A DNA stretch of 64,000 nucleotides, taken from positions 70-64,069 of the forward strand of contig JACPWY010000055.1 in NCBI GenBank assembly GCA_016196825.1, written 5' to 3'. The notes below the pieces were generated by a model. It searched no databases, was not told the origin of the DNA, and saw nothing but the letters and a program-made list of their open reading frames with translations. Positions 15,946 through 63,908 of the stretch are shown piece by piece. Made by a program: the position numbers and the translations under genes. This DNA comes from Deltaproteobacteria bacterium (GTDB lineage: Bacteria; Bdellovibrionota; FAC87; UBA2466). Position 1 is the first letter of the stretch. Every line of letters starts with the position of its first letter.

Positions 15946-16212
15946 ATGAAGGTCAACGCCCTCCAGGTTCGGCAGTCGTTTGGGAAGATTCTTAAGAAGC
16001 TTATTGCCTCCGATGAACCCATCATCATTGAGAAGGGGCGTTTGCCAGTGGCCGTCTTGATCTCTCTCAAGACGTTTCAGGAACGTTTTATTGACTACCG
16101 TGAGCAGCAGAAAAAAGAGGCGGTCCTGGAGAGATTCAAAAAGGCCGCAGTGGAATCCAAGACAGACTCTCTCAAAGCGCTCCGCGAGCTCCGCTATGGT
16201 TCGGATCGTTGA
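15946..16212 (+). CDS. Phd/YefM-family type II antitoxin
   Basis: MKVNALQVRQSFGKILKKLIASDEPIIIEKGRLPVAVLISLKTFQ is a typical Phd/YefM N-terminal fold. It overlaps the downstream PIN gene by 17 nt. Confidence 0.75.
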   Translation: MKVNALQVRQSFGKILKKLIASDEPIIIEKGRLPVAVLISLKTFQERFIDYREQQKKEAVLERFKKAAVESKTDSLKALRELRYGSDR

Positions 16213-27420: not shown

Positions 27421-27885
27421 ATGGACAAGAAAACGCCGCCTGAGAGCGAAGTTCAGATAGTTGATCTGCAGCGCTACCGGAAAAACAAGAACGAAGAGCG
27501 ACGACGGGAGTACGAACGCGTGCTCTTCAATCGAATCTTAGGGGTGTATAGCTTCGCGGAGAAAAACTCCCTCAACCATATTGAGGTCATCGATATTAGT
27601 TACTCCGGTCTCAAGTTCCGGGAGGAGAATCCCGAGCGCCCGTTAAAGGCGGAAGAGAAGGTGGCCTTGCGCTTTTATTTCACTCCAAGCTCCTACCTCA
27701 AGGTGATCGTCGATGTGAAACGCGCCATCCCATTCAAAGATGACGATCGCGAGGGGATGGAATACGGCTGCCAACTCGATAAGTCCACAAAGTCCTACGA
27801 AGTCATTCGGGAGCTGATCGCCTTCATGTATAAGTACTCAGAAACAGCGTGTCAGGACACCAACCCGCCCATGATCTGGTTCTAA
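27421..27885 (+). CDS. stand-alone PilZ-domain protein (putative c-di-GMP receptor)
   Basis: RxxxR element (RREYER) followed ~25 aa later by the DxSxxG element (DISYSG). Size is 154 aa. No SD is visible. Confidence 0.75.
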   Translation: MDKKTPPESEVQIVDLQRYRKNKNEERRREYERVLFNRILGVYSFAEKNSLNHIEVIDISYSGLKFREENPERPLKAEEKVALRFYFTPSSYLKVIVDVKRAIPFKDDDREGMEYGCQLDKSTKSYEVIRELIAFMYKYSETACQDTNPPMIWF

Positions 27886-27930: not shown

Positions 27931-30900
27931 ATGTGTGTCTCGGGGAAAAATGTGCGTATTGGGCTGGTTTTGGTGGTTCTTGCCGCCCTGGCCAGCTGCC
28001 GATTCAACATGTCCGACCGATCTCCTTCGGGCGTCAGCTCGGTCACGAGTCCGGCCACCCCCTCCTCAACGACGGCGACCACCGCTGGAGGCGACACCTC
28101 CCTCACCTCGGTAACCGCCGGACCAGCCGTCAAACTGGCGGTCAATGGGCTTCCACCCTTTCAGGCGGGTGTTTGTGCTGGCCCCTTTACGATCACCGCA
28201 ATCGACGCCCACGGGAACGTCGCGACCCCTTCCAACAACACCGAGCTTTTCAAGCTCGAGGGCACCCCGCCCAACGCCATTTTTATTGATGTCAATTGCA
28301 CGGAGCTCGCCCCTGAAGGATCCGTTGTATCGGACTCTTCCGGCACCCGCGCTCTATTCTATGTGAACGGCACTCAAGCCTACTCCAAGGTGATCGCCGT
28401 CAACGGCGCCGGCGTGACGGGAACGTTTGGGATTCAAATCCTCAGTGGCACCCCCACCCGCCTTGAAGTGACTGCGCCAGCCGCCGTGTCGGCAGGCGAT
28501 TGCTTCGCAGGCGCCCTTTCACTCGTTGACAAAAATGGGAACGTCGCCACCGCCACAAAACGATTTTCCGCAGGCGTGCTCATTCATGGGCTTTCCAACG
28601 CCGGAGTTTTTTCTGATCCGCAGTGCTCCCAGCCGCTCGCCACGTTGGATTTCTCGGTGGGGACCTCCTCCCAGCCGTTTCATTTTCTCACACAGTCACC
28701 CGGCACCGGTTCCCTGGCCGCGCAAGCTCCGTCGGGACTGGAAGGAGGAAGCGCCAACCTCACCGTCTTCGTGGAAAATTCACCGCAGCTAGGCCTCATC
28801 CCTCCCCCGGGCCAGATGGTGGCCGGGCTATGTTCGGCATTTCGAATCGTTTCACTCGACACCGCCGGAAACACTCTGGTGACCCACAACGGCCTCCCCG
28901 TCACAGTGAGTTCCAAAACGAGCCAGCTCGTTCTCTTCTCCGATGCGGCGTGTTCCACTCCTCTCAATCCCGCCACAGTGACGCTTGCCGCGGAATCATC
29001 GACCAATCAATTTTTTGCCCGCAGCGAGCTTGCCCACACGGGGCAGGTGGCGGTCAGCGCCAGTGGGTATCTCTCTGCGACCGTCGCCCCCATTGTCGCG
29101 CCGGCCCCCGCAGTCTCTCTGTCGCTCGATTCTCTGCCCGACTCACTCACCATGGGCGGATGCATGACAGCTGTTGTGCGTTCCAAAGATCCGTTTGGAA
29201 ACGTATCGACCGTCCCGGTCGGTGTGCCGATCCTGATTTCCGGCTCAGGCACTGCCGCGACGGGAACCAATTTCTACGCCGGCGGCTCCTGCACGACCTC
29301 CGCCACCAAACAATTCACACTCGGCAATGGGTCCTCCCTCGCAGCCTTTTCATTCTCGCCTGGGAGCCCAGGGGCACTCACCATCACGCTCACCCCGAGC
29401 GGTCTCACCGGAAGTGGTGGAGCCACATCCACATCCGGCACTACGACGATCGCCCCCTCCCCCACTGTGCGCCTCTCGCTGAGCTCTTCGACAAGCGCCA
29501 TCATTGCGGGCCTCTGCGCCAAAATGTCTCTCTCAACCATCGACGCAGCCGGGACGGTAACGATGGCCCCCATCGACACCTCGGTCACTCTCTCAAATGA
29601 TCAGAGTCTGCAACCACTCTTTTTCTCGGACGCGTCGTGCTCCTCGGCCACATCCAATCTGATCGTGAGATCGGGGACGTCTTCCGCCGATTTTTACATT
29701 CAAAGCACAAAGATCAATGCAATCGTTGTCTCGGCCCAAGGGACCGATTCCACTGGAAAAGCGATCTCGACCTCAAAGGGAGTCGCCATCGTTGCAGCTG
29801 CGCCCTCTACGTTAAGCATCGGCTCGCTCGGAAGCGCCCCATCAGGAAAACTGTGCCTCGGCCCTGTCGCGGTCGACACCCTCGATCAATTCCGCAATCC
29901 AGCGATCGTTCCGAAGACCACATCATTCGCGCTGGAATCAACGGGAGCCGTCGAATTGCAATTCTCATCAAACTCGACCTGCTCTGACTCCATTAGCTCC
30001 CTCACGATCCCGGCGGGAAAAGGTGAAGGTGTCTTTTACGCCAAGGCCCAATCGGGAGGGGCGGTCTCATTTTCTATTTTGGGGGGAGACCTCCAGGGCT
30101 CGGGCGGCACCACGCTCAGCGATCCCCCCGCGCTGCACCTTGTGCTGGCAGGACCCTCATCGGCCTCAGCCACCGTCGGCACCTGCGTGGCCTTTCAGGT
30201 CGGGAGTGTCGACCCCACAAACACTCCTAAGATCTTTGATCCTAATACGATCACGGTCGGGGTCACTCCCACGACAAATGCAGTGTTTTTCTCGGACAGC
30301 AGCTGTGCAACGGGGCTGCCAAACAATCAAGTGACCATCAGCCCGGCGCTCAACCCCGCGCCTTTCTACTTCAAGTTCACGACGGCCCAGTCAATGACCA
30401 TCTCGGCCAACGGATCACTGAATTCACAGGGGGCGGGAAGCCAGCTTACGCTCACGCCAGCCAACCCTTCCCAGATTGTCTTGTCACCGATGGGTGCGGG
30501 CACCTTTTCGGCCTCGACTTGCGCGGGTCCCTATTCGGCTGAGGCGCAGGATAGTTTCGGTAACTCATCACCTGTGCGCTCAACGCTGCCATTCACTTTT
30601 CAACCCACGGGCGTGTCGGCCAGCTTCTACTCCGATGCGGCGTGCTCGACTTCAGGAGCGGCCATCGCAGCAGGCAAAACGTCCGGCCTTTTCTATATGA
30701 AGGGAGCCGAACCAGGGTCGCTCACCGTCTCAGTGGGCGCAACGTCGCTGCATAGCTCCTGGCGGATCTTCACCGTCGCAGCCGATGGCGCAGTGAAGCT
30801 CACGTTGCTCGGGCAACCGGTGACTCAGGCCTCATTCGGGTCGGTGAGCCAGGGGCAGACATCATCCCTCATCTTCACTCTGACCAATAGTTCGACCAGG

Positions 30901-33900
30901 ACGGCGGCGAGTAAAATCGCGGTGACGGTGAGCAGCAGCTCCTTTTCCGCCGCGCTTTCAACCGCACCCGCCGGTTGCAGCACCCTCACCGATCTCAAGC
31001 TAGCGCCGGGCCAACAGTGTGGATTCGGGGTCCTCTTCACCGCCAACAGCCAGGGCGCTGCCTCGGGATCACTCGACTACACCTTTTCGATGGGAGGCGC
31101 TTCTCAATCACAGTCGGTCTCTCTTTCCGGAACTGGCACCACCCCGCTCGCTGCAGTCCTCACAGCGTCTGCGCAGTCGATCGACTTTGGCATGCTCATG
31201 GCCGGCCAAACGACCAAACAGCATGTGACAGTGACCAATTCCGGAACTAGGGACGCCTCACAGATATCGCTCAGTGGAGTATCTGCTCCCTTCTCGGCCA
31301 GTTTTGAAAGCGGGTGCGCAACTCTAGCCCCGGGATCCGCATGTGACCTCACCCTCGCCGCTGCCCCCTCCACCTCGGGCAGCGCACAACAGACGCTCGT
31401 GATCGACTACTCCGATGGAACGGATCACACACCCAACCCTTCGACGGTGAGCCTCAAAGAGACGTCGAACCTACCAGCGGTACTGCAGGTCTCGAACTCA
31501 TCGCTTTCATTTCCAGCCACGGTCGTAAAGGGAACCTCCGGTGCGCAGACGCTGACAGTTACCAACATGGGAAGTCTTCCGGCCACGGAAGTCAGCTATT
31601 CCCTCTCCGGCTCGGCCTTCTCACTCAACAGCTCGAGCTGCCCGGCCACCCTGGATGCGTTCACGAGCTGCGCACTTTCGATCACCTTTAACCCAACCGC
31701 GCTGGGTTCCTTTTCGGACGTCCTCTCCATCAGTTACACGAGCTACGCTCAAGCCAAGGCCACCACCGTGGCGATCGTTTCCGGGGATTCGACTTCGCCT
31801 CCCCACTTGATCTTTAACCCCGCGCTGGGGACATTCGCTCCCACCGCCATCAACAAGGCAGCACCATCGGTCAGTCTACTCCTTACAAACTCCGGTAATG
31901 GCGATGCCCAAGGGATCACGCTTGCAACCTCCGCCCCTTTCTCCGTGAACTCCACCGAGTGCAGCATGCTCAACGCCGGACAATCGTGTTTCGTTAAGGT
32001 CGGTTTCACTCCGACTGCCGCGGGGTCCTTCTCGAGCACGCTCACGGCCAACTGCTCTAATGCTACGCTTGGGTGCGCGGCCACCACCGCCTCCCTCACT
32101 GGCAGCACGTTGCCTCAATCCTCCCTCACCCTGAGCGCAACCCAGCTCTCCTTTGGCCTCTTAACGATCGGCCAGACGATGACCGAGACCATTACGCTCA
32201 GCAACAGTGGCGCCTTAGGAAATCCCGCGATCCAACTCTCGACGCCGCAGCTGGGAGGCTCCAATTCGGCAGCGGCTCTGGCTCTCACTCATAGTTGCGG
32301 CACCACCCTGGCGAGCGGATCAAGTTGCACGGTTTCCGTCACCTTTAGTCCAACGAACGCCGGAACCTTTGACAACACTCTCGATATCGTTTGGAGCTCC
32401 GGCAACGGCCTCACTACATCAACCGTTGGTCTTTCCGCGTCAGCCCTCTCCGCGGCAAACGTCACGCTCTCTCCGGCAACGTCCAATTTTCCTGACACAG
32501 TTGTCGGTAATACGTCACAAGCAATCGCAGTCACCGTCTCTAATGGCGGTCAGAGCAGCGCGAAGGACATTGTGATTTCAGGCCCAACCTCGGTGTTCAT
32601 CCGCTCCGCCGCCACCTGCCCGCCCGAACCTTTCGCGCTCGCTGCTGGTGCCAATTGCACCGTTAGCTACACCTTTACCCCACCCGGTATAGGAAAGACG
32701 ACCCACTCCTTCGGAGGCACCTTTGCTGGCACTTCCGGCGCAACGAGTATCGGAAACATTTCTTTCTCCGGCACCGGCATTGCAACCGCCTCACTTGTCG
32801 TTGATGAAACATCTCTGAACTTCCCTCCCACATCCGTTGGAAAAAGCTCACAAGCGAGTCTTGTTTTCACGAACACCGGAAATGGTCCCGCCTCCCAAAT
32901 CAATTTAGCCAACAATCTCGCAAGTCCCTACTTTCTTTCGGGCCCGCTTTGCTCGTCGCTCGCTGCTGGAGCCCAATGCACCGTCACCATCACCTTCACC
33001 CCGGTTGCGATTGGCACATTTCCGAGTAACGTTCAGGTGCAATACTCCGACGGATCCACCCTCCAGAAAACTTCGAGCATCTCCCTCACGGGGACAACCG
33101 GCGGAAAGGTGAACGCGACCCCCTCGACTGTGAGTTTCTCCAACGTTGTCGTCGGGCAGACCAATCATCAAGATGTAACGATCACTAACAATGGCGCGGT
33201 CAGCCTATCCTTTTTGGCGGCAGGCATCGATCCGAACAGCAGCCCTGGCTTCAGCGTCAATCCAGGTGCTTGTGGGACGCTGTCAGTTGGACAATCATGC
33301 GAAATCGTTTTTAGCTTAAGTCCCAACGCTGTCTCGAACTCACTCAGCGGTTCCTCAACCGTGCGATTTTCCGACAGCGTCGGAAACGTTGTAACCGCGC
33401 CCCCCATTGCACTTTCCGGCACCTCCGTGGGACTCGCCAAGCTCACGGTCGCTCCCCAATCGCTGACATTCAGCGACACTGTCATCGGAACACAGTCCGC
33501 CACCCAAACTCTCACGATCACCAATACCGGTGTCGGTCAGGCCACAAAGATCGCGCCAGCGCTTCCAGCCGATTTTCTCAACTCAGGGGGAAGCTGCGGG
33601 GCAAGTCCCTTCTCCCTCTCACCCAATGCCCAATGCACCATTTCTCTCATCTTCAAGCCAACAGCGGCTGAGGACCTTTCCCAGGCCATCACCGGGACTT
33701 ACTCTAACGGAGTTGCCGATGACATCTTCAGCTTTGACGTGAGGGGAAATGGCCAAACACCCGGCAATCTTATGCTCTCAGTGGCTAGCTTAGATTTCGG
33801 TTCGATTGCTCTGGGCACGACCTCGCCGTTAAGAAGTGTCACTGTCTCCAACACCGGAGGGTCGGCCGCGACCCAAATCACAATCCTCAATCTCTCCCCG

Positions 33901-36900
33901 CCCTTTAAAAACCCCTCTTCGAGTTGCGGCGCTCAACCCTTTGCCCTTGCGGCTGGATCGAGTTGTGAGCTCGACTACGCATTCAATCCGACCTCGGCAG
34001 GCAATTCCACGGAAAAACTCGCGGTAAACTATAGCAACGGAGTCGGGAGCGGAACTCAGCGCAGCCTCAATCTCTCAGGTACGGGGATGGGAGGCAGTTT
34101 CTCCGCCCTGCCCAACCCACTCAATTTCAACAACACGCTCCTCGGCCAGACCGGCAACCTTTCGGTTACCGTCACCAACACTGGAGCGACCAACCTGAAT
34201 TTCGCCGGCGCCGGAATCAATACTGGAAGCGGCGCCGGCTACAGCATCGCGAATGGCAACTGCGGATCGCTTTCTACCGGGGCCACCTGCTCACTGACCT
34301 ACTCCTTCACTCCCACGGCCATCTCTAGCTCCTTCAGCGGATCCTCCACGATCCAGTTCACCGATAACATGGACAACGCAGTGTCGCAGGTGTTGCCCCT
34401 TTCCGCATCGTCTTCGGGGGTCGGCCTTCTCTCCTCTTCGAAAGCATCATTGAGCTTCGGCGATGTCACCGTGGGCAGTTCATCGGCCGCGCAAACGTTC
34501 ACGGTTACCAATATCGGCTCGGGCCCGGCGACCCAAATCTCGTGGAGCGGCCCATCGCCCGATTTTGTGGTCAACTATGGTTCGTGTGGCTCCAATGCCT
34601 CTCTTGCGGCGGGGGCCCAATGCACCGTCAGCCTCTCGCTGAAGCCCGCAGCGCCGGGAACTTTCAATCAAACCCTCACGGTTGGCTATTCCGACGGACA
34701 AACAACAACCACGGCAAACATGGTGACCGTCTCGGGAAGAGGCCTCGGCCCCGCCAATTTGGCTCTTTCACCCTCATCTCTCGATTTCAGTGGCATTGCG
34801 GTCGGTGCCACTTCTCCCACGAAGTTGGTGACGATCACAAACAGCGGCTCGGCCACTGCTTCGAACATTCTTCTCAACCCCACTCTCTCAGGCAATAGTT
34901 TCACCAAGGTCAGCTCCACCTGCGGGAACGAGCCCTTCGTTCTCGCCGCGGGGACAAATTGCCAAATCAATCTCGCCTTTTCGCCGGCGGTCGCGGGATC
35001 GGCCTCGCAGATCTATAGCGTGAGCTATTCCGATAGCGTTTCTCAACAAAGTGGCAGCACTCTGACGTTGAACGGAACCGGAATCGAGGCGGCCGTCCTC
35101 ACCACAAATCTGTCGAATGTTGTTTTCCCCTACACCGCTCTCGGTCAATCCTCGAGCGCAACGGTTGTCCTGACCAACGCGGGCGGAACCGATGCCACGC
35201 AAATCGCCCTGTCACCTTCCACGCTTCCAGCCCATTTCAGTTATGGGAACAGCACCTGCGACAGCACTCTGTCACCCGGCGCGACCTGCAGTCTCACCCT
35301 CAACTTCATTCCCAAAGTGAGCGGCACCTTCACGGCGTCTCTGCAGATCACTTACAATAATGGCACCCCCACGACGCCAACTCCGCCCTCCATAAGCTTA
35401 ACGGGAACTACCGCCGGCGCGTATTCCCTCACGACGGCCTCACTCGACTTCGGAGCAGTCCCAGTCGGGTCGAGCAAGAATCTCTCCCTGACCGTGACAA
35501 ATATCGGGGCTCCAACAATTACCTCCTCAACCCCAACGATGGACACCGGCTCCGATGCCGCCTTTCGGTTGATCAACTCGACATGCTCGACGCTCGCATC
35601 CGGGCAAAACTGTTTAATCACATATTCATTTCAGCCCACGACTGCGATGACGAACGCCGGAGGCGCCTCCACGCTGGCCTTCACCAATCCCGACAATAGC
35701 CCGCTCCCTTCCACTCAGGTGAGAATGACTGCTTCAGCCCCCGGTGTCGCGAGAATCACCGCCTCTCCGTCTACTCTGGCCTTTGGCCCCATCGCGGTGA
35801 ATGGCTCCTCCAGCCCCCAAACGCTCACTCTCACCAATGCCGGCACGGGCCCAGCCACCCAGCTCGCCTGGAGCGGGGTAACGAACGACTTTTCTATTGC
35901 CTTTAGCACTTGTCCCAATGGCTCCGCGCTTTCAGTCGGCGCGCAGTGCACGATTTCTGTCACTTTTAGACCAACATCAGCCGCCACATTCTCCCAATCC
36001 CTGGCACTCAGCTATTTCGATGGCACGGCCAATAGCAATCTCATCGCCTCTACACTCACGGGGCAGGGAGTGGGTGCGGGAGTGATGGCCTTAAGTCCTC
36101 TGAGCCTTGATTTCGGAAGCGTACTGGTGGGACAGACGAAAGCGCTCAATTTTGCGATCACGAACACGGGTACTGGTCCCATCACCAATGTTCAATTTTC
36201 ATCACCCGTCGCTTTGCCCTTTGCGACGGGCTCGTTGTGTTCATCCATTCAGCCGGGTGCCAGTTGCCAACTGAGCACGGCCTTTCTTCCGTCTGCGGCC
36301 GGAACCTTTCAGGCCACGGGCCAGCTCAGTTATTACGACGGCGCCTCAGCCCAGCTCTCGCCGGCGTTCACGCTCTCAGGGCACACCGGACCAGCTTTTA
36401 GGTTCAGTCCGACATCACTCAGTTTTGGAAACGTTGCCTATGGGACAACCTCGACGGCGCAGGCCATCACGATCACCAACACCGGCGGCACTTCCATTAA
36501 GCTGAATACCATTCTCTTCGACGGACAAAACTCTCCTCAAAATGGGTTCAGACTAGTCACCAGCAATTGCGGCACAACCCTCTCCCCAAACGGGATCTGC
36601 ACACTCTCGGCCACTTTCACTCCGGCGGCGGCCAACTCGGGTTACTCCTCCGTCTGGACAATCAGCTTCGTTGATGCCGTGACAAGTAGTAATCCCATCT
36701 CCGGGTCAATCATTCTGAGCGGTTCAGGCACGTCACCAGGAGCACTCTCAGCCAACCCAGCCTCTTTCTCCTATGGTACGGTGTCGCTCGGTTCAACAGC
36801 CAACACCACGATAGTCATTTCAAACCCAGGTGGAACATCGACTCTGATCACGGGGGTCACGGCTCTGGCGAGCCCTTTCAGGGCAGTCAATCAATGCACT

Positions 36901-39474
36901 GGGATTGCGTTGGCGCCGTCGGGCACCTGCCTCGTTCAGATCGCGTTCACCCCTTTGAGTGGAACCACGAGCTCCTGGCAGCAAAACTTGATCGTGAGCG
37001 GTCAGGCCGGTTCCACGCCCGTGAGCGTTTCGGTCCCGATCAGCGGCAACACCACCTCGGTCGGAGCTCTGAGATTTTCTCCCGCCTCGGTCGCCTTCCC
37101 GGCGACCGCGCTCAATTCGTTCGCGACCATGAACGTCTCCCTTTCCAACACCGGGGGAACGGCGATCACCTTGGGTGCTCTTCCGACGCTCACCCCTCCC
37201 TATTCGGTGAATGCAGCCAACTGCTCCGGAATCACACTTCTGCCCGGCTCAAACTGCACGCTCATCATTACGTTCACGCCGGTGAGCGGAGCGACGAATT
37301 TCAATCAGACTCTCACGGTGGCAGGCACCTCCGGGGGTGTTCCGCTTTCCGCCTCGCTCCCGGTGAGTGGATCAACATTATCCTCCGGTGTTCTCACACC
37401 GTCGGCCAGTACGTACAACTTTGGTTCACTCCTGGCGGGACAGACCCGCACCTCCACGATCACTTGGACAAATACGGGAGGCGCCTCGCTCACAGCCACT
37501 TCGGCATCAGGTCTCTCCAGTCCCTTCACCCTCACCGCCAACAACTGCCTGAACGTGACACTGCAGGCGGGGATGAGCTGCTCGACCACGGTCACGTTCA
37601 CATCGCCCGGCGGGGCCGACATGGCGTGGAGCCAAGTTCTTAGACTCGCGTACGCGACGGCGGGAACCTCCGCCACATCGTCAGTTACTTACATTGCCGC
37701 GGCGTCCGCTACTCCCGGGACATTCACCCCAAGCCCGACAAGCTATAACTTTGGCACGATTAGCTCCGGCACATCGAGGAGCGTAAACATCACGTGGACT
37801 AACACCGGTGGCGCCACATCTCAGGCCCTCTCCTTCACGGGCTACTCGGCGCCCATCACGCTGACTTCAGACGGGTGCACGGGAAGGGCGCTCGCGGTCG
37901 GCGGCTCCTGCACCACGATGTTTACATTCAGCCCCACAACCGGGGGCCCGAGCTTCACCCGCACGGTGATCGCGCAATATACAACCAACGGGGCGGTTTT
38001 ATCGTCGAGCATTACCCTGGCAGGATCCATCGCTGCTCTTCCCGGCACGCTCACCGCAAGCCCGACAAGTTACAACTTTGGAAGTTTGCCCCCAGGAGGC
38101 ACCGGCTCCTCGACGGTGACCTGGACCAACACGGGCGGGTCGAGCCTCACTATCGCACCTGCGACAGGCATTTCGAGTCCGTTCACTCTGACTTCCAATT
38201 CATGCTCGGCTGCCACTCTTCTTCCAGGAGCGAGGTGCAGCACAACGGTCATATTCACGGCGCCTTTCGGGACGACCACCTCGTGGAACCAGATTCTAAG
38301 GCTCTCCTACTCGACGAACGGAGCTTCCGCGTCCACTTCGGTGGCATACTACGCCGCCACTACCGCCCCGCCGGGGACGCTCACGCCCAACACAGCCTCC
38401 TACAATTTCGGGTCGGTCAGCGTCGGCTCCGCCGTCCGCCAATGTTTCACCGAGACAAATACTGGTGGGGCCGCCATTACACTGCCGGCCGTTCCACGCA
38501 CGCTCTCCATCGCCGGCGGCTTCAATATTGTCGTCGACTCCTGCATCGGATCATCCCTGCAACCGAGCCAATCGTGTCAGGTGTGTCTCTCCTTTGCGCC
38601 GACAATCGCGGGCACCATGACCGCAACCTTCTCAGAAACTTTCACAAATACCGATGGCACCAACACGCGATCGGGCGGCACTATTAAGCTGATGGGAAAC
38701 GGCGTGGCACCCTCACCCTCCCCCACTCCCACCTATGGCTTCCTCCGCATCACTCCGACCCAATACAATTTTCCGGCCACCGCCGTGAATTATTCCAAGC
38801 TCCAAGTGTTCACTGTCACCAACACGGGCTCTGGCCCTGCCACCATCAACAATGTCCAGTACGGGGAGAATCCGGGGTGGCCGCAAAAGGCAATCGTCTA
38901 TAGCACCAACTGCTGTTCTGGTCTCAACACAACCACCGGGGCATGCACCCCCACAAACCTCAACCCTTACAGCTCTTGCACCGTCTCCCTCAATTTCTTG
39001 CCCAATATCTACATGATTCTGTCCAACTATGCCTTCACGGTCACCACGAACCTGATGGGGGTAGGTGGACTCTATAGTGGCCAATCCGTAATGGTCCAGG
39101 GCTCCATGGGGGTACTTTCGAATCCGCCGACCTCGGGAGCCCGGTGGTTCGCCACGTCCGGATCGACGACACTCCATGCTGCCGTGGGCGCTCAATCCGC
39201 CGCCACCACGGTCGTGCTTCAATCATTTTCGACGACGGCCAGAGCACCAACGATACCGGGTGTCGGCCCCGGATTCATGAGTCTCTCCGCCAACTACATC
39301 AATAGCCCGTTTCTGCTCACAAGCTCGTGCCCCATTGGGGGTAGCGTCGGGAGTTGTTACGCGACCGTCCGTTGCACACCTCGGGCCACCGGCTCGGTCA
39401 CTCTCCCGCTGACGGCGACCTTCAGTGACGGCACCCCCACGGCCACCCTCCCCTTCACCTGTGCCTCCCCTTAA
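27931..39474 (+). CDS. giant (3,847 aa) surface lipoprotein with tandem Ig-like and choice-of-anchor-D/HYDIN-like (PapD-like) repeats
   Basis: Single uninterrupted 11,544-nt frame. Purine-rich AAGAAGGGGA (27921-27930) abuts the ATG. Signal peptide plus lipobox ..VVLAALASC (Cys23), then a Ser/Thr/Pro linker and two repeat arrays (listed as separate features). Composition is Ser/Thr/Gly/Ala-rich. Confidence 0.9.
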   Translation: MCVSGKNVRIGLVLVVLAALASCRFNMSDRSPSGVSSVTSPATPSSTTATTAGGDTSLTSVTAGPAVKLAVNGLPPFQAGVCAGPFTITAIDAHGNVATPSNNTELFKLEGTPPNAIFIDVNCTELAPEGSVVSDSSGTRALFYVNGTQAYSKVIAVNGAGVTGTFGIQILSGTPTRLEVTAPAAVSAGDCFAGALSLVDKNGNVATATKRFSAGVLIHGLSNAGVFSDPQCSQPLATLDFSVGTSSQPFHFLTQSPGTGSLAAQAPSGLEGGSANLTVFVENSPQLGLIPPPGQMVAGLCSAFRIVSLDTAGNTLVTHNGLPVTVSSKTSQLVLFSDAACSTPLNPATVTLAAESSTNQFFARSELAHTGQVAVSASGYLSATVAPIVAPAPAVSLSLDSLPDSLTMGGCMTAVVRSKDPFGNVSTVPVGVPILISGSGTAATGTNFYAGGSCTTSATKQFTLGNGSSLAAFSFSPGSPGALTITLTPSGLTGSGGATSTSGTTTIAPSPTVRLSLSSSTSAIIAGLCAKMSLSTIDAAGTVTMAPIDTSVTLSNDQSLQPLFFSDASCSSATSNLIVRSGTSSADFYIQSTKINAIVVSAQGTDSTGKAISTSKGVAIVAAAPSTLSIGSLGSAPSGKLCLGPVAVDTLDQFRNPAIVPKTTSFALESTGAVELQFSSNSTCSDSISSLTIPAGKGEGVFYAKAQSGGAVSFSILGGDLQGSGGTTLSDPPALHLVLAGPSSASATVGTCVAFQVGSVDPTNTPKIFDPNTITVGVTPTTNAVFFSDSSCATGLPNNQVTISPALNPAPFYFKFTTAQSMTISANGSLNSQGAGSQLTLTPANPSQIVLSPMGAGTFSASTCAGPYSAEAQDSFGNSSPVRSTLPFTFQPTGVSASFYSDAACSTSGAAIAAGKTSGLFYMKGAEPGSLTVSVGATSLHSSWRIFTVAADGAVKLTLLGQPVTQASFGSVSQGQTSSLIFTLTNSSTRTAASKIAVTVSSSSFSAALSTAPAGCSTLTDLKLAPGQQCGFGVLFTANSQGAASGSLDYTFSMGGASQSQSVSLSGTGTTPLAAVLTASAQSIDFGMLMAGQTTKQHVTVTNSGTRDASQISLSGVSAPFSASFESGCATLAPGSACDLTLAAAPSTSGSAQQTLVIDYSDGTDHTPNPSTVSLKETSNLPAVLQVSNSSLSFPATVVKGTSGAQTLTVTNMGSLPATEVSYSLSGSAFSLNSSSCPATLDAFTSCALSITFNPTALGSFSDVLSISYTSYAQAKATTVAIVSGDSTSPPHLIFNPALGTFAPTAINKAAPSVSLLLTNSGNGDAQGITLATSAPFSVNSTECSMLNAGQSCFVKVGFTPTAAGSFSSTLTANCSNATLGCAATTASLTGSTLPQSSLTLSATQLSFGLLTIGQTMTETITLSNSGALGNPAIQLSTPQLGGSNSAAALALTHSCGTTLASGSSCTVSVTFSPTNAGTFDNTLDIVWSSGNGLTTSTVGLSASALSAANVTLSPATSNFPDTVVGNTSQAIAVTVSNGGQSSAKDIVISGPTSVFIRSAATCPPEPFALAAGANCTVSYTFTPPGIGKTTHSFGGTFAGTSGATSIGNISFSGTGIATASLVVDETSLNFPPTSVGKSSQASLVFTNTGNGPASQINLANNLASPYFLSGPLCSSLAAGAQCTVTITFTPVAIGTFPSNVQVQYSDGSTLQKTSSISLTGTTGGKVNATPSTVSFSNVVVGQTNHQDVTITNNGAVSLSFLAAGIDPNSSPGFSVNPGACGTLSVGQSCEIVFSLSPNAVSNSLSGSSTVRFSDSVGNVVTAPPIALSGTSVGLAKLTVAPQSLTFSDTVIGTQSATQTLTITNTGVGQATKIAPALPADFLNSGGSCGASPFSLSPNAQCTISLIFKPTAAEDLSQAITGTYSNGVADDIFSFDVRGNGQTPGNLMLSVASLDFGSIALGTTSPLRSVTVSNTGGSAATQITILNLSPPFKNPSSSCGAQPFALAAGSSCELDYAFNPTSAGNSTEKLAVNYSNGVGSGTQRSLNLSGTGMGGSFSALPNPLNFNNTLLGQTGNLSVTVTNTGATNLNFAGAGINTGSGAGYSIANGNCGSLSTGATCSLTYSFTPTAISSSFSGSSTIQFTDNMDNAVSQVLPLSASSSGVGLLSSSKASLSFGDVTVGSSSAAQTFTVTNIGSGPATQISWSGPSPDFVVNYGSCGSNASLAAGAQCTVSLSLKPAAPGTFNQTLTVGYSDGQTTTTANMVTVSGRGLGPANLALSPSSLDFSGIAVGATSPTKLVTITNSGSATASNILLNPTLSGNSFTKVSSTCGNEPFVLAAGTNCQINLAFSPAVAGSASQIYSVSYSDSVSQQSGSTLTLNGTGIEAAVLTTNLSNVVFPYTALGQSSSATVVLTNAGGTDATQIALSPSTLPAHFSYGNSTCDSTLSPGATCSLTLNFIPKVSGTFTASLQITYNNGTPTTPTPPSISLTGTTAGAYSLTTASLDFGAVPVGSSKNLSLTVTNIGAPTITSSTPTMDTGSDAAFRLINSTCSTLASGQNCLITYSFQPTTAMTNAGGASTLAFTNPDNSPLPSTQVRMTASAPGVARITASPSTLAFGPIAVNGSSSPQTLTLTNAGTGPATQLAWSGVTNDFSIAFSTCPNGSALSVGAQCTISVTFRPTSAATFSQSLALSYFDGTANSNLIASTLTGQGVGAGVMALSPLSLDFGSVLVGQTKALNFAITNTGTGPITNVQFSSPVALPFATGSLCSSIQPGASCQLSTAFLPSAAGTFQATGQLSYYDGASAQLSPAFTLSGHTGPAFRFSPTSLSFGNVAYGTTSTAQAITITNTGGTSIKLNTILFDGQNSPQNGFRLVTSNCGTTLSPNGICTLSATFTPAAANSGYSSVWTISFVDAVTSSNPISGSIILSGSGTSPGALSANPASFSYGTVSLGSTANTTIVISNPGGTSTLITGVTALASPFRAVNQCTGIALAPSGTCLVQIAFTPLSGTTSSWQQNLIVSGQAGSTPVSVSVPISGNTTSVGALRFSPASVAFPATALNSFATMNVSLSNTGGTAITLGALPTLTPPYSVNAANCSGITLLPGSNCTLIITFTPVSGATNFNQTLTVAGTSGGVPLSASLPVSGSTLSSGVLTPSASTYNFGSLLAGQTRTSTITWTNTGGASLTATSASGLSSPFTLTANNCLNVTLQAGMSCSTTVTFTSPGGADMAWSQVLRLAYATAGTSATSSVTYIAAASATPGTFTPSPTSYNFGTISSGTSRSVNITWTNTGGATSQALSFTGYSAPITLTSDGCTGRALAVGGSCTTMFTFSPTTGGPSFTRTVIAQYTTNGAVLSSSITLAGSIAALPGTLTASPTSYNFGSLPPGGTGSSTVTWTNTGGSSLTIAPATGISSPFTLTSNSCSAATLLPGARCSTTVIFTAPFGTTTSWNQILRLSYSTNGASASTSVAYYAATTAPPGTLTPNTASYNFGSVSVGSAVRQCFTETNTGGAAITLPAVPRTLSIAGGFNIVVDSCIGSSLQPSQSCQVCLSFAPTIAGTMTATFSETFTNTDGTNTRSGGTIKLMGNGVAPSPSPTPTYGFLRITPTQYNFPATAVNYSKLQVFTVTNTGSGPATINNVQYGENPGWPQKAIVYSTNCCSGLNTTTGACTPTNLNPYSSCTVSLNFLPNIYMILSNYAFTVTTNLMGVGGLYSGQSVMVQGSMGVLSNPPTSGARWFATSGSTTLHAAVGAQSAATTVVLQSFSTTARAPTIPGVGPGFMSLSANYINSPFLLTSSCPIGGSVGSCYATVRCTPRATGSVTLPLTATFSDGTPTATLPFTCASP
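28117..30780 (+). repeat. array of 8 tandem ~105-aa Ig-like modules (in-frame protein repeats)
   Basis: Each module has the G-x-C...D/S-x-x-G-N-(V/T) start: AGVCAGPFTITAIDAHGNV, AGDCFAGALSLVDKNGNV, AGLCSAFRIVSLDTAGNT, GGCMTAVVRSKDPFGNV, AGLCAKMSLSTIDAAGTV, GKLCLGPVAVDTLDQFRNP, GTCVAFQVGSVDPTNTP, STCAGPYSAEAQDSFGNS. Each also has a second Cys in an F-(S/Y)-(S/D)-x-x-C-S motif. Confidence 0.8.
30781..39470 (+). repeat. array of ~25 tandem ~95-105-aa choice-of-anchor-D/HYDIN-like modules (in-frame protein repeats)
   Basis: Recurrent pattern L-x-F-(G/P)-x-(V/T)-x-V-G...(T/S)-(V/I)-T-N-(T/S)-G...(F/Y)...C...L-x-x-G-x-x-C...(F)-x-P...G. I counted 25 'TN.G'-type cores, from FTLTNSS to FTVTNTGSGPA, plus a degenerate terminal copy. 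Confidence 0.8.
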
Positions 39475-46937: not shown

Positions 46938-47297
46938 TTAATAGGGAACGCGAATATCCGGCCATTTCCGGGAGAAGTCCTTCGTATTCCGAGTGACCAA
47001 CACATACCCGAGGCGCTCCGCAGTGGCTTTGATGATTGCGTCGGGAATTCTCATCTTAAACTTCCTACGAACTCGGACAGTTTCCTTCGCCATTTCACCA
47101 TCAATCGCGTGAGTCTTGAAACGGCTTAGAAACCCGGCAAGCTCGATCTCCTCACGACCACTTCGAGCCCCGACCAAAATTTCGATTTGTGTGATGATAC
47201 TAATGTGCAGTTCATCGTAGCGCTCAAACTCCTCCTTCGAACGCCGGTCGCCGTTCAGGTAGTCAATCAAGATATTGGTGTCAAAAACGGCGTTCAC
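46938..47297 (-). CDS. vapC: PIN-domain toxin VapC
   Basis: MNAVFDTNILIDYL...ISIITQIEILVGA...DAIIKATAERLGYVLVTRNTKDF shows canonical PIN acidic residues. 4-nt overlap with the upstream antitoxin. Confidence 0.85.
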   Translation of the reverse strand: MNAVFDTNILIDYLNGDRRSKEEFERYDELHISIITQIEILVGARSGREEIELAGFLSRFKTHAIDGEMAKETVRVRRKFKMRIPDAIIKATAERLGYVLVTRNTKDFSRKWPDIRVPY

Positions 47298-47521
47298 TTT
47301 TTTTCCCAGTCCTTCCTCAGTTTCTTTTCATAAGCCAGGGAGTCCACACCCCGTCCCTTCCACAAACCGAACGAGGCGTCCTTCGGCAAGCAATGGGGGG
47401 ACTCCGCGAGAAACAGGGTGATAGCCCTTCGAATGGCCTCAGCCCGCGAAATGGACTCTTTCGCGCAAATCTCAGCGAGCTGCTTGATTATCTTCTCCGG
47501 AATGTCGATGAGAGTCTTCAT
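47294..47521 (-). CDS. vapB: ribbon-helix-helix (CopG/VapB-type) antitoxin
   Basis: MKTLIDIPEKIIKQLAEICAKESISRAEAIRRAITLFL has an RHH pattern. Confidence 0.8.
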   Translation of the reverse strand: MKTLIDIPEKIIKQLAEICAKESISRAEAIRRAITLFLAESPHCLPKDASFGLWKGRGVDSLAYEKKLRKDWEKK

Positions 47522-47615: not shown

Positions 47616-49055
<1,440 letters not shown>

Positions 49056-49061
<6 letters not shown>

Positions 49062-49865
49062 ACGCTGCCGGCGAGTGTGGGTCAAACACCCGACCTGCAC
49101 GATCATGCTCGCACTAAAGAAAAACACATTGCACATGGCCGCTCCAAACGCATGGATGGCGCTAGTCAGTCCGAGTGCCGCTAGGAAAAACACCCGCCTG
49201 TGGCGTGGCCAAAACCACCAGGCGACTAGCACAGCGCCAAGCGCCGCCTCCCCAATCACCCCCATCCACGCCAAGATCGCGTTGTGCGAAAGCGCCGCTA
49301 TCCACTGACGGTACAGGTCCGGAAACCACCAGTCCCGCGCGGTGGCCAGATAATTCTGTCGCACGTACAGATCCCCCCCACTCAAAAACTCAGTGTTCAC
49401 CTTCATCAGCGCCGTCGACAGATAAATCCAAGCCGTCTCGATCACAAACACGTCACGTGGCCAGATCCTGACCGCCTTCCCACGGTCCGCATTGGAGCAC
49501 TCACTCTGCGCCAGCAGAAAAACACTCACACAGTAGTAAAGAAAATCATTCAGCGGAAAAATATACGCCTCAAGCCCCCGCGCCAGCAGCGCCCCCACCG
49601 CAAACCACCGCGCCCGCCACCCAATCAGCAAACCCACTTCGCAAAATATCACCCCCAATTGCGATAACTGGATCGCCCGGTGAAAAGTCTGGTCCGGCAC
49701 CAGCCACAAAACACCCTGCGTCCCGCCGTAAAAGAGATCCATCAGATCATAAGTCAGCCACACGAGCGCAAAACCAATTCGCAAAGCAATGTAGGGATTG
49801 TGGTCCGTGGTCTCCCCCACCCAGCGACGCCACCGTTCAACCACAGGGCACCTCCTCCTCGGCAT
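49056..49865 (-). CDS. HTTM-like multi-pass membrane protein (tentative)
   Basis: 269 aa, Trp/Arg-rich, with ~6 helices. The N-terminal ..NPYIALRIGFALVWLTYDL.. resembles the HTTM opening helix (..laa.RI.fG......d.). Its 3' end overlaps the convergent NCS1 gene by 6 nt. Confidence 0.45.
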
Positions 49866-50238
49866 GGGTGCCGTCTGGCGAGAAGCAATGGAATTTCACC
49901 CGGTGCCGCGCCTCCGGCGAACTCCTCAATCGACACACCAGCTGCCCCACCGCGTGGTAGTCGCGGGCGGTGTCATAGATGATGTCCCACTCAAGAGACG
50001 TGCCGAATCGCCGAAGCGAAGAAAACTCCCCAAGCTCGGTCGCAACCGGCGGATCCCAGCTCAACTGGCAGCGCTCCACCCGAGTGGCGAACATGTCCCA
50101 CGAAAAGGCCACCCGTCCAGGCGGCGCGCCGAAGAGCCGAAAGCCCCTCTCAAACTGCAGGCGGGTGGAGTTCAACTGGAGCACCACAAGCCCCCCCACG
50201 AGCACCGCCACATACACTGGAGACGCCAAGAATTTCAT
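49837..50238 (-). CDS. signal-anchored hypothetical protein
   Basis: Trimmed to ATG 50238, which places the start just outside the inverted repeat. MKFLASPVYVAVLVGGLVVL anchor, then ..FSWDMFATRVERCQLSWD... Overlaps the downstream HTTM-like gene by 29 nt. Confidence 0.45.
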   Translation of the reverse strand: MKFLASPVYVAVLVGGLVVLQLNSTRLQFERGFRLFGAPPGRVAFSWDMFATRVERCQLSWDPPVATELGEFSSLRRFGTSLEWDIIYDTARDYHAVGQLVCRLRSSPEARHRVKFHCFSPDGTHAEEEVPCG

Positions 50239-50245
50239 TGATTTA

Positions 50246-50377
50246 AGAGCGCATTGCAAAATTAACCCCTACTCGGTCGGATAAAATGGCCAGGCCCTTC
50301 GTCCTCCGCGTTCGCGTCCTCGGTCCTGGCCATTTTATCCCTCCCTCGCTCACGGGGTTAATTTTGCAATGCGCTCT
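50246..50377. repeat. 132-bp nested perfect inverted repeat (24-bp outer arms, 16-bp inner arms)
   Basis: Outer arms AGAGCGCATTGCAAAATTAACCCC (50246-50269) and GGGGTTAATTTTGCAATGCGCTCT (50354-50377). Inner arms GGATAAAATGGCCAGG (50279-50294) and CCTGGCCATTTTATCC (50325-50340). Both pairs are exact reverse complements. The element lies in the 197-bp divergent intergenic region. Confidence 0.9.
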
Positions 50378-50435
50378 AAATTATATACCGAGTCAGCCTT
50401 GAAAGTCCGTTCACCCGTTTGCTATAGCCTCATGC

Positions 50436-50879
50436 ATGAAAACCACCCTCATCGTCACAGGCCTTCTCTTCCTTTCGCCCACACTCTTCGCCACCGAGGA
50501 TAAAATCCTCGGTCCCATCGAGGCTATCGAAAGAACGGTGGTCGTCGATCCCAAGAAGTGTCTTGAAAACCTCAAGATGACCGTAGAGGTCGGGGGCGGC
50601 GGCGGGTGGGGCTACGCAATCCAGGTGGGTCAGTGCGAGATCACTTTCGAAGACGCCGACCGCATTCTTCAATCCGACAAGATCGAAAAGCCATTTCCAA
50701 GCGCTGGCCCTATCGGAACCCAAGTTTCTCTCGGTGTCGATGGCAAGAGCTATCACATCAGTGTGAGATTCCGGAACGAAGGCTTCAAGGATAAGACCGA
50801 CACGGCCAGAGGTCTCATTCTCAACTCCGTCCCCCGACAGACTTTTCTCGTGAATGCGATTCGCGTTATCGCGCAATGA
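50436..50879 (+). CDS. secreted hypothetical protein
   Basis: Signal peptide MKTTLIVTGLLFLSPTLFA. 147 aa. I recognise no family. Confidence 0.6.
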   Translation: MKTTLIVTGLLFLSPTLFATEDKILGPIEAIERTVVVDPKKCLENLKMTVEVGGGGGWGYAIQVGQCEITFEDADRILQSDKIEKPFPSAGPIGTQVSLGVDGKSYHISVRFRNEGFKDKTDTARGLILNSVPRQTFLVNAIRVIAQ

Positions 50880-50892
50880 CGCCGATGGTGGG

Positions 50893-51222
50893 CTACAGCA
50901 GGCGAATTTGTTTATTGATGCGCTCTACGTCAGACTCAACACGCTCTTGGCGGGAGATAACAGCTGCGAGGCCGTCGAGAACGATACGATTCTCGTTGCG
51001 CTGCTCCTCCATAAGAGAGGCCACACGATGAATTTCACCGGTGAGGCCCTCAATTTTGGATTCTATCCCCGCAAATCGAGCGTCCATCCTTTTGCCGAGA
51101 GATCGAATGTCCGCTTTGAGCTCACTTCGGATCTCTTTGACCAGCCCAACCGATGCTGGGGCGGAAGAACGAGTGATGTGTCTCTTTTCCATCAGGCATT
51201 GATAGCCACGAACGTGAGCCAA
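50893..51222 (-). CDS. hypothetical coiled-coil protein
   Basis: 109-aa ORF with heptad-like ELKADIRSLGKRMDARFAGIESKIEGLTGEIHRVASLMEEQ. The true start may be the internal MEKRH. Confidence 0.4.
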   Translation of the reverse strand: MAHVRGYQCLMEKRHITRSSAPASVGLVKEIRSELKADIRSLGKRMDARFAGIESKIEGLTGEIHRVASLMEEQRNENRIVLDGLAAVISRQERVESDVERINKQIRLL

Positions 51223-51402
51223 ATCAAAGGGAAATGCGTCATGAAATATGGGTCCCGATTGTGGACTCGCAAGTGGGAATTCCGGACCGCAAGTAAACTT
51301 ATCAATTCCGCAAGCGGTAGGAACCGGTCAGCCGCGACAGCCAGCCGGCACGCGCGCTTTCAAGAAATGAATGATTAAAGAGCAACTCAGGCTCTCCCAA
51401 AA

Positions 51403-53577: not shown

Positions 53578-53742
53578 GTGCAATCAGCGCTTGCAAAAAA
53601 GTGTCGTCAGGATCTTATCGAACTGTGCAGAAAAATGTCGCCCGCCGAACGACTTGAGGCGTTTCTCAATCAGTCTAAGACCCTAGCGGAGATTGCCTTG
53701 CAGGGTGAGACCGATCGAAATCGGAAAGCGAACAAACGATGA
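53578..53742 (+). CDS. small ORF (54 aa from GTG 53578, or 35 aa from ATG 53635) coupled to the nucleotidyltransferase gene
   Basis: Not in the track (<60 aa). ..KKCRQDLIELCRKMSPAERLEAFLNQSKTLAEIALQGETDRNRKANKR. Its stop overlaps the next start (ATGA at 53739). No SD is visible. Confidence 0.3.
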   Translation: MQSALAKKCRQDLIELCRKMSPAERLEAFLNQSKTLAEIALQGETDRNRKANKR

Positions 53743-54302
53743 CAGCGGGCCCGGGGCAGTCCGCGCAGCTCCTCCTGGAAGTAGTGCCTCTATTGGACCG
53801 GTTGGCCATTCCTCACGCAATCGTGGGTGCACTCGCTGCCTCCTACTTCGGTGTCGTGCGAGGAAGTCTAGACGCCGATGCGATTATTTCAGTGAGCGGT
53901 CCCACCACACGGATCGATCAGCTGGTACTTTCACTCAAGAAGCTTGGGCTTTCAGTAAGCTTACGGATGGGAGACCCATCCGATCCGCTCATTGGGGTGA
54001 TTTCGCTCGAAGATTCTCACCACAATCGTGTCGATCTGATTCTTGGCATACGAGGAATGGATCCCGCTGCATTCTCAAGAGTCGTCGAGACCAGCCTACT
54101 CGGATCGACGATCCGGATCATTGGGATCGAGGATTTCATAGCAATGAAACTCTTCGCGGGCGGCCCAATCGATCTCAATGACGTCCGCGGCGTTCTTGAG
54201 ATTTCCCGCTCAATGATCAAAATGGATCTCCTCAGACAACTCGCAATTCATTTTGGCCCACAGACGCGCGCCTCTCTCGAAACTCTCCTCACAGAGAAAT
54301 AG
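53739..54302 (+). CDS. nucleotidyltransferase-fold protein (DUF6036/MNT-like, TA-associated family)
   Basis: AIVGALAASYFGVVRGSLDADAII (G-x-x...D-x-D NTase core) and IIGIEDFIAMKLFAGGPIDLNDVRGVL (the KL.AgR.kDl.Dv motif typical of this family). Confidence 0.6.
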   Translation: MTAGPGQSAQLLLEVVPLLDRLAIPHAIVGALAASYFGVVRGSLDADAIISVSGPTTRIDQLVLSLKKLGLSVSLRMGDPSDPLIGVISLEDSHHNRVDLILGIRGMDPAAFSRVVETSLLGSTIRIIGIEDFIAMKLFAGGPIDLNDVRGVLEISRSMIKMDLLRQLAIHFGPQTRASLETLLTEK

Positions 54303-62725: not shown

Positions 62726-63598
62726 TCATCTACTGGTTTCTAAAGCTCGACCATCCTGCCCATGGCTTTTGCCCCTTCCCCAATCAACCCTGGGGGTAAT
62801 TTGCGGCCTCTCCCACCGAGGAAAATCCAGGCATGCTTTGGCGAGATTGTGGGCTCTGCACAGGAGCCTGAGGTTTTCTAGATCGCGACTGCTCCCACCC
62901 AAAGCGTATGGCCGAATGTGATCGATCTGGAGATGTGCGGTTTGGTTGCACCGAACGCCGTTCGGACCGACATACGAGCATTGATAACCATCACGATCTT
63001 TTACCTCTTTCGCCGTATGTGCAAGTACCCGGTGCGTGTGACGTGGCGTGACGGTGTTCCGGGTTTTCTTCTGTCTCACGAAGCTTTTGAGTACTCTTTT
63101 TAAGAGCACAGCTCCATCCTTTTCCGAGGCGAGTCTCTTTGCCTGTTCGAGAAGTTCTTTGAGTTCCTCGTCTAAGACGATTTTCAAAATCTCCTTTTGG
63201 ATCTTTTCAGGAAATTCCTTGGCCAAGATATCCGCCACCTCCCGGGATGGTTTGTTGATGACCTTGGGAAGAAGGTCTTGAGCGTTAGACTTCTCAAGAA
63301 CAGGAGAAAGCAGAGTGAGAGAGGTTAAAGACAGAGTCCCGTTCTCAAGAAGAGGCTTCACCTCGACTACTTTTTGACTCAGCCGACAGGCCTGAATTCG
63401 TCGGTGGGTTTCCCCCTCGGAGTACCCAAGATATCGAATACAAAAATCATAAAGACTGGCGTAGCCTTCCTTGAGCCACAGCCGGCGACGATCCACTTCA
63501 CCCAAGTAATCAAGGACCCGACTAGTCTGAGTCTTTTCCTTAAGCACCGCAGTCTTTGTTTCAACCAATAGAGTTTCATCACAGATATTTTCAAACAT
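62726..63598 (-). CDS. HNH endonuclease (DUF222-like N-terminal helical domain plus HNH)
   Basis: Trimmed to ATG 63598 (GAGAGG upstream). HNH core CSYVGPNGVRCNQTAHLQIDHIRPYALGGSSRDLENLRLLCRAHN. Confidence 0.8.
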   Translation of the reverse strand: MFENICDETLLVETKTAVLKEKTQTSRVLDYLGEVDRRRLWLKEGYASLYDFCIRYLGYSEGETHRRIQACRLSQKVVEVKPLLENGTLSLTSLTLLSPVLEKSNAQDLLPKVINKPSREVADILAKEFPEKIQKEILKIVLDEELKELLEQAKRLASEKDGAVLLKRVLKSFVRQKKTRNTVTPRHTHRVLAHTAKEVKDRDGYQCSYVGPNGVRCNQTAHLQIDHIRPYALGGSSRDLENLRLLCRAHNLAKACLDFPRWERPQITPRVDWGRGKSHGQDGRALETSR

Positions 63599-63908
63599 AG
63601 AACCTCTCAATTGAGATGACTCTAACCCGAGTTTTTGACGATGCATTTTTCACTGCAAAAAACCCAATGAAATCGCAAGATGGTCACAGAAAATTGATAG
63701 TTTTTGAAAACAGAAAAAATATCCCCTCAAAAATCGATCTGACTACAACGACTTACCGTCGATAAATCTGAACAACATCGGGATTTCGTCAATCACAAAA
63801 TGGAATTTCTGAATATTTTTTTACTAAAAATGTGAGCGCTTCATAAACCGCACCTGGAAGTCGTAAATCCGAATCCTTATGCTGGGCCCATTAAGGAGGT
63901 CTGGCAGA

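Follow-up and report, generated by a model that had tools for sequence, protein, structure and literature searches.

What is the nested perfect palindrome that fills the space between two divergent genes at this locus, and how did it come to lie there? The initial annotation of the window (the whole 64,000-nucleotide stretch of DNA that we analyzed) left three options: a MITE or REP-like mobile palindrome, a binding platform for a dimeric regulator of both genes, or a structured 5' leader or small RNA. We prefer the first kind of explanation and give a probability of roughly 45% to a MITE-like element, that is, a small, non-autonomous palindromic insertion of about 130 bp.

The arms that had been described for this element (24 bp outer and 16 bp inner) were exact in both coordinates and sequence when we rechecked them, and the GC-rich 30-nt center does contain CGTCCTC twice. 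From left to right, the parts are as follows.

50243-50380: whole nested palindrome, 138 bp at its maximal inverted-repeat extent and 132 bp between the ends of the perfect arms (50246-50377)
50246-50269: outer left arm, AGAGCGCATTGCAAAATTAACCCC, 24 nt perfect; candidate terminal inverted repeat
50270-50278: left spacer between the outer and inner arms, TACTCGGTC, 9 nt, unpaired
50279-50294: inner left arm, GGATAAAATGGCCAGG, 16 nt perfect (50279-50297 is 19 nt at 95%)
50295-50324: center, 30 nt, 67% G+C, non-palindromic; CGTCCTC at 50300-50306 and 50315-50321
50325-50340: inner right arm, 16 nt perfect (50322-50340 is 19 nt with one mismatch)
50341-50353: right spacer, CTCCCTCGCTCAC, 13 nt
50354-50377: outer right arm, the exact reverse complement of the outer left arm

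The outer arms grow from 24 perfect nucleotides to 27 if one mismatch is allowed (50243-50380). The outermost 3 nt of the center on each side (50295-50297 and 50322-50324) are also counted within the 19-nt extension of the inner arms. The left and right spacers have unrelated sequences as well as different lengths (9 and 13 nt), so the two halves are asymmetric, which the initial annotation did not stress. The longest open reading frame inside the palindrome has 38 to 51 amino acids and no protein match.

All 40 of the perfect arm pairs are Watson-Crick pairs, and there is no G-U pair on either strand. RNA structures that are under selection on one strand normally gather G-U pairs, and a decaying inverted duplication is expected to show evenly spread mismatches. 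Because the 40 arm pairs are all Watson-Crick, with no G-U, while the spacers are unrelated, we favor symmetry at the level of the DNA: the pattern fits arms that were generated or maintained as DNA, for example as ends that are recognized by a transposase.

A chance origin of the arms is excluded, because none of 100 shuffled sequences had even two matches to either arm. The initial annotation had suggested RNA folding as a check. The RNA from the plus strand is predicted to fold at -77.2 kcal/mol, compared with -33.6 +/- 3.3 for shuffled sequences (z = -13.4), and the RNA from the minus strand at -82.1 kcal/mol (z = -10); for the DNA fold of the palindrome, z = -12.4. The predicted shape is a single long hairpin containing an internal loop, and it is the strongest hairpin of the window (z of about -13). 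The impression that nothing comparable lies elsewhere in the window also held up: the palindrome is the longest perfect inverted repeat of the 64 kb, and the runner-up, at 462-528, has perfect arms of just 15 nt. As a class, however, long palindromes are statistically non-random yet not rare, because 1.29 Mb of unrelated bacterial loci contain about 17 perfect inverted repeats of at least 20 nt within 400 nt, or about 1 per 75 kb.

The runner-up is worth a comment of its own. It is a 15-nt perfect inverted repeat, TATCGACGATAGATC, at 462-476 and 514-528, with a 37-nt loop, and it closely precedes a series of small open reading frames, among which are a TumE-like toxin (1211-1507) and an HVO_A0114-like protein (1504-1872). 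This hairpin may be an operator of the toxin-antitoxin-like cluster.

The genes on either side of the palindrome are listed here with the partner of the left one.

49056-49865, minus strand: 269-aa HTTM-like membrane protein, in a conserved pair with the 133-aa gene, as the second gene of the operon
49837-50238, minus strand: left flanking gene (HYZ71_13585), 133 aa, with an N-terminal signal peptide or transmembrane helix and no family
50436-50879, plus strand: right flanking gene (HYZ71_13590), 147 aa; it scores well for coding, carries a signal peptide, and is an ORFan

The divergent arrangement that had been reported is real, because the left pair is conserved and the right open reading frame scores well for coding. 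In particular, the 133-aa gene has homologs at two distant loci only (38-46% identity), and its pairing with a membrane-protein gene is kept in both; the partner proteins there have weak matches to PF05090 (HTTM). No homolog of the 147-aa gene was found by protein search, but its codon-usage score is 0.26, versus 0.08 for its antisense open reading frame. The 133-aa and 269-aa genes score 0.03 and 0.05, while genes in the window with Pfam support score 0.09 to 0.31, which hints that the pair was acquired recently. Neither Pfam nor NCBIfam assigned a family to the three genes nearest the palindrome. At the two homologous loci, the 133-aa gene has just 30-70 nt upstream of it, the upstream context differs, and the palindrome is absent. 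One of these loci (L087) adjoins a YcaO/ThiF/nitroreductase cluster and a second HTTM gene. We also agree that the palindrome is not a terminator for either gene: both point away from it and no T-run follows the outer stem, so we reject an intrinsic terminator.

More broadly, the window is ordinary chromosome, with genes for RelA/SpoT, MutL, MiaA, YicC, PGI, a 3847-aa Ig-repeat protein, and several toxin-antitoxin modules. To the left of the palindrome lie a cluster for reductive pyrimidine catabolism and an NCS1 permease, and to the right lies a kynurenine-pathway cluster. The nearest relatives of the NCS1 permease are from Pseudobdellovibrionaceae and other Bdellovibrionota metagenome-assembled genomes (MAGs), at no more than 80% amino acid identity, and none of the 80 loci that we matched through this permease carries homologs of the genes that flank the palindrome. 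Genes for a transposase, integrase, invertase, or recombinase are absent from the 64-kb window. Similarly, the 10 kb to the left and to the right of the palindrome encode no DNA-binding regulator, and we saw no obvious one in the window.

Several other features of the neighborhood were recorded along the way. The giant 3847-aa open reading frame (27931-39474, plus strand) encodes Ig-like repeats of the ASH/HYDIN/Cep192 type, with at least 12 stretches that match PF22544, and it is directly preceded by a gene for a PilZ-domain protein (27421-27885). Two open reading frames overlap in antisense: 50854-51378 (plus strand, 174 aa) and 50893-51222 (minus strand, 109 aa). Logan and NCBI-style gene calls pick the 174-aa frame, while the 109-aa frame resembles a genuine coiled-coil protein (with a weak match to DUF1664); their coding scores, 0.09 and -0.005, do not discriminate between them. 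Accessory genes lie at 16091-16606, 46938-47521, 53578-54302, and 62726-63646; this set comprises two toxins with a PIN domain (one accompanied by an RHH antitoxin), a small open reading frame together with a 187-aa frame of no assigned family, and an HNH endonuclease. The 47-54 kb region around the palindrome seems to be a patch of accessory and orphan genes between the two catabolic clusters.

If the palindrome is mobile, then other copies might be found, and the initial annotation had proposed to look for them. No second copy turned up in the window or in the public collections that we searched. Within the 64 kb, a search for the arms with up to three mismatches, blastn-short with a word size of 7, and an exhaustive scan for perfect inverted repeats all returned the element alone. 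Exact seeds from the outer arm had no match in IMG/VR, in the JGI metagenomes, or in a genome set with one representative of each GTDB species; with the inner arm, scans of public genome, metagenome, and viral collections gave chance matches to a single arm, with no further similarity. A gapped pattern of two arms had no matches among IMG/VR viral contigs. BLASTN of the whole element, or of the arm alone, against phages and plasmids gave nothing meaningful with E values up to 10, and no insertion sequence (IS) with the element's ends was found among the plasmids. We also translated the stop-free frame that spans the element, which should catch open reading frames that were mis-called over other copies, and found no protein candidate. 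Finally, Rfam gave no match at gathering scores, and its permissive mode (E = 10) gave two chance-level matches (E = 4-6).

Perfect palindromes with arms of 20-27 nt do adjoin NCS1 permease genes in related Bdellovibrionota MAGs (L008, 9890-9968; L025, 9954-10018; L042, 32-82). In L008, a palindrome of about 80 nt lies about 30 nt upstream of the start codon. We considered a REP-like family that is common to these MAGs and rejected it: the three palindromes are unrelated in sequence to the element.

The promoters around the element offer another line of evidence. The relevant sites, with other genes of the window that have similar geometry, are as follows.

50380-50385, minus strand: perfect TATAAT that adjoins the palindrome, on the correct strand for the 133-aa gene
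50332-50361, minus strand: sigma-70-like site inside the element, TTAACC-18-TAAAAT, facing the 133-aa gene
50400-50429, plus strand: candidate leaderless-type promoter of the 147-aa gene, TTGAAA-18-TATAGC, 6 nt from the ATG at 50436 and outside the element
Gene start 10934: RelA/SpoT, TTGAAA-17-TACAAT-8-ATG
Gene start 18986: GGDEF/FHA gene, TATAAT-9-ATG
Gene start 47616: NCS1 permease, TAGAAT-6-ATG

Perfect TATAAT occurs seven times in the window, counting both strands (128 kb). The RelA/SpoT, GGDEF, NCS1, and 147-aa genes each lack a Shine-Dalgarno sequence and carry a -10-like hexamer at a distance of 6-9 nt from the ATG, which suggests, from the spacing of these motifs, that this lineage frequently uses leaderless mRNAs. 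The promoter of the 147-aa gene was read by eye: its -10 box is imperfect, and the promoter scan did not report the site. The site inside the element matches the promoter consensus at 9 of 12 positions. Its TTAACC is within the outer arms and its TAAAAT is within the inner arms, and a mirror site lies on the plus strand with a spacing of 14 nt instead of 18 nt, because the two spacers are 9 and 13 nt long.

The flanks of the element were also checked for a target-site duplication, as had been suggested, and a 3-bp direct repeat that overlaps the palindromic extension is present at both sides.

50244-50246: TAA, left copy of the candidate target-site duplication
50377-50379: TAA, right copy

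With TAA flanks, the element proper would be 50247-50376 (GAGCGC...GCGCTC), with the terminal sequence GAGCGCATTGCAAAATTAACCCC. Given that the repeat is just 3 bp, that it overlaps the palindromic extension, and that we were free to choose the boundaries, the chance of such a repeat is roughly 5-15%. Elements of the IS1031 group of the IS5 family insert at TNA with an exclusive 3-bp duplication, and the inverted repeats of the single IS1031-group element that is quoted begin with GA (PMC12016507). The match of TAA/TAA to a TNA target is a lead, not proof.

We then reconstructed the empty site in silico. Deleting 50247-50379 (the element and one TAA, 133 bp) gives TATAAT-TTAAATCA-ATG, with a gap of 8 nt, and a compact divergent promoter region of 64 bp; the predicted empty-site allele is ...TATAATTTAAATCAATG.... 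The geometry of the reconstructed gap is like that of the RelA/SpoT (8 nt), GGDEF (9 nt), and NCS1 (6 nt) genes, all of which have Pfam support. This coincidence would be explained naturally by an insertion between the -10 box and the ATG.

Independent assemblies break inside the element. Over 10.6 kb, 2.9 kb, and 2.3 kb, contigs from Logan (SRR12113417 and SRR12113388) agree with the window at 100% identity, but none of them crosses the element. The left contig (L003) ends at 50273, identically in two accessions, and its other end is at 47955. The right contigs (L001 and L002) start at 50306, as seen for two of the three contigs that carry the 147-aa gene. The break coordinates thus recur in at least two accessions per side, which argues against a random loss of coverage, and 50274-50305 (32 nt) is present in the MAG contig only.

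Logan assembles with k = 31, discards singleton k-mers, and leaves contigs of 150 bp or less unreported (PMC12424806). The window contains no repeated canonical 30- or 31-mers, so another sequence among the reads must be responsible for the branch in the assembly graph. The end of L003 at 47955 falls in a conserved NCS1 motif; such ends therefore mark k-mers that are common to other sequences in the community. At the other side, the end at 50273 means that the shared 30-mer starts at 50244, which is the outer edge of both the palindrome and the TAA. Most simply, a 92-nt node (50244-50335) would be common to at least one other sequence in the metagenome, i.e., another copy, and this middle node would be missing because of Logan's length limit. 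It is probable that the community contains a second, similar sequence. However, an identical second copy predicts a right break at about 50350 rather than 50306, so the other copy would have to differ in the right 45 nt. Alternatively, the breaks could be caused by micro-heterogeneity in 50274-50305 or by a reproducible sequencing artifact that is related to the hairpin. Plain allelic variation is disfavored, because Minia normally pops simple SNP bubbles.

How, then, do the possible explanations compare? For the MITE-like insertion, we found terminal inverted repeats (23-24 nt perfect, or 27 nt with one mismatch), a size well within the usual limit of about 500 bp (130-138 bp), and no coding capacity, as no open reading frame has a protein match; in these respects the element fits a MITE. 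The Watson-Crick arms, the TAA repeat, the reconstructed empty site, and the reproducible assembly breaks favor mobility, and the distant 133-aa/HTTM loci that lack the palindrome count in the same direction. Against it, there is no second copy, no transposase in the 64-kb window, and no plasmid IS with these ends; the TAA repeat may be due to chance; the right break is not in the expected place; and a MITE does not require perfect inner arms. A single copy without conservation is also the outcome for which the initial annotation would have left the element as a chance or locally evolved palindrome, so the MITE is formally unproven. Of the three original options, the mobile palindrome is thus supported by indirect evidence, and the operator and the RNA are weakened because there is no nearby regulator, no Rfam match, and arms that reach the -10 box. 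If the palindrome is instead a structured 5' leader of the 133-aa/HTTM mRNA, then transcription from the adjacent TATAAT would begin at the foot of the hairpin, and it would act as RNA, whether as a 5'-terminal stabilizer, an RNase III target, or a translational gate. The perfect TATAAT 3 nt upstream on the correct strand, the stable fold of the minus-strand RNA (-82 kcal/mol, z = -10), and a hairpin end that is only 8 nt from the AUG are what such a leader predicts. We nevertheless consider it unlikely: the 40 arm pairs include no G-U and the two strands of the element are equally perfect; with the palindrome 0-3 nt from the -10 box, its outermost pairs would be upstream of the transcription start; no Shine-Dalgarno sequence lies between the hairpin and the AUG; Rfam gives no credible match even at E = 10; and the element is absent from the homologous loci. 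Nor would a leader explain the breaks in the assembly graph. A palindrome that evolved locally as DNA, either an operator or cruciform for a multimeric regulator or a functionless quasi-palindrome from template switching during replication, would account for its place in a divergent promoter region and for the promoter-like hexamers in its arms (TTAACC in the outer ones and TAAAAT in the inner ones). This is a doubtful explanation as well. Perfect arms of 24 + 16 bp far exceed what an operator needs (no operator half-site is known to require arms of this length), there is no gene for a DNA-binding regulator within 10 kb of the palindrome in either direction, and no conservation can be demonstrated among the sequences searched. 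Correction by template switching should homogenize the spacers too, but they are unrelated.

The breaks might suggest that the locus itself is misassembled, with the MAG contig misjoining two repeat-ended contigs so that 50274-50305 would not be real at this locus. These 32 nt are indeed backed by the MAG contig alone, and no Logan contig spans the element. But the left inner arm that the MAG-only segment brings in complements the Logan-supported right inner arm exactly, which a random join would not yield; there are no Ns, and Logan's 150-bp limit accounts for the missing 92-nt node. We therefore view a misjoin as very improbable. Another way to account for breaks within the element is an invertible switch in promoter spacing: recombination between the outer arms would flip the 84-bp interior, swap the 9- and 13-nt spacers, and redirect the promoter to the right gene. 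It would suit such a switch that the outer arms hold a -35-like box and the inner arms a -10-like box, with spacings of 18 versus 14 nt that arise from the asymmetry of the spacers. If it were true, then one 130-bp element would toggle expression between two divergent genes and the breaks would reflect heterogeneity in the population. We give the switch hardly any credence. The 64 kb contain no gene for an invertase or recombinase, an invertible segment of 84 bp would be very short, and the promoter matches at just 9 of 12 positions. Furthermore, we reject an inversion polymorphism as the cause of the breaks, as two orientations predict k = 31 contig ends at 50269 and 50354 instead of 50273 and 50306. 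Sigma-54 promoter and dif readings were rejected on sequence grounds. The probability that is left after all of these readings goes to something else.

Under the MITE-like insertion, we propose the following course of events. An element of about 130 bp, with terminal repeats of 23-24 bp that start with GAG and with an internal pair of repeats, would have landed on TAA, between the TATAAT and the start codon of a formerly leaderless 133-aa/HTTM operon. Transcripts from this TATAAT would now start inside the outer arm and have a hairpin, about 135 nt long and with a predicted -77 to -82 kcal/mol, as their leader. This hairpin would end 8 nt before an AUG that lacks a Shine-Dalgarno sequence, which should lower the translation of the left operon. 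Alternatively, the internal TTAACC-18-TAAAAT site may supply outward transcription toward the left operon, while its mirror site on the plus strand, with a 14-nt spacing, should be inactive. The right gene would be little affected, as its candidate promoter (50400-50429) is outside the element.

If this reading is correct, then the element represents a previously unrecorded family of small mobile palindromes from an uncultured, Bdellovibrionota-like groundwater lineage. It would also mean that a leaderless gene has been caught while being converted to a gene with a long hairpin leader, which would be a clean natural case of the rewiring of expression. On the practical side, long palindromes fragment metagenome assemblies that are built with k = 31. 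This is one orphan element beside genes of no assigned function, and its value is local unless more copies or orientation variants appear.

Finally, we compared the element to known systems. Like the attC sites of integrons, it has nested inverted repeats (R''-L''...L'-R'), unequal unpaired spacers, a variable center, and a length in the range of 57-141 bp. However, its ends are AGAGCGC/GCGCTCT, not RYYYAAC/GTTRRRY; the sole GTT motif (GTTAATT) lies inside the element and departs from GTTRRRY; and the window has no cassette array, no second site, and no integrase, so we reject attC. Like an inverton of the fimS type, it has inverted repeats of about 24 bp that bracket promoter-like hexamers between two genes. 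In contrast to an inverton, its interior measures just 84 bp and is also palindromic, no gene for a recombinase is nearby, and there is no sign of two orientations. ERIC and REP-BIME elements are also long, imperfect, non-coding intergenic palindromes that can form very stable hairpins, but they have many conserved copies and are usually transcribed, between genes that are co-directional or convergent, whereas the element here is a singleton in a divergent promoter region. Membership in REP or ERIC can be set aside, with a single copy in the 64 kb and no other palindrome of related sequence.

MITEs that derive from the IS1031 group of the IS5 family come closer, with a 3-bp direct repeat that matches TNA and ends that begin with GA(G) (PMC12016507). 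The link consists of 3 + 3 nucleotides: the terminal repeats are unlike the ISLrh ends that are quoted in the same paper, and our searches found no such transposase and no full-length IS with these ends.

The Correia elements (NEMIS) of Neisseria are bacterial MITEs of about 100-155 bp that are non-coding and have terminal inverted repeats about 26 bp in length. They insert at short A+T-rich targets near gene starts, they carry outward promoter-like sequences, and they form a long hairpin when transcribed. They differ from the element in that they have hundreds of copies and a TA duplication, versus one known copy and a candidate TAA here; also, there is no sequence similarity, and the element has a second, perfect internal inverted repeat. 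The likeness extends to size, terminal repeats, lack of coding capacity, a candidate A+T-rich target by a gene start, an outward promoter-like site, and the predicted hairpin. Membership among the MITEs is not established; of the systems compared, the element works most like the Correia-type or IS5-derived MITEs.
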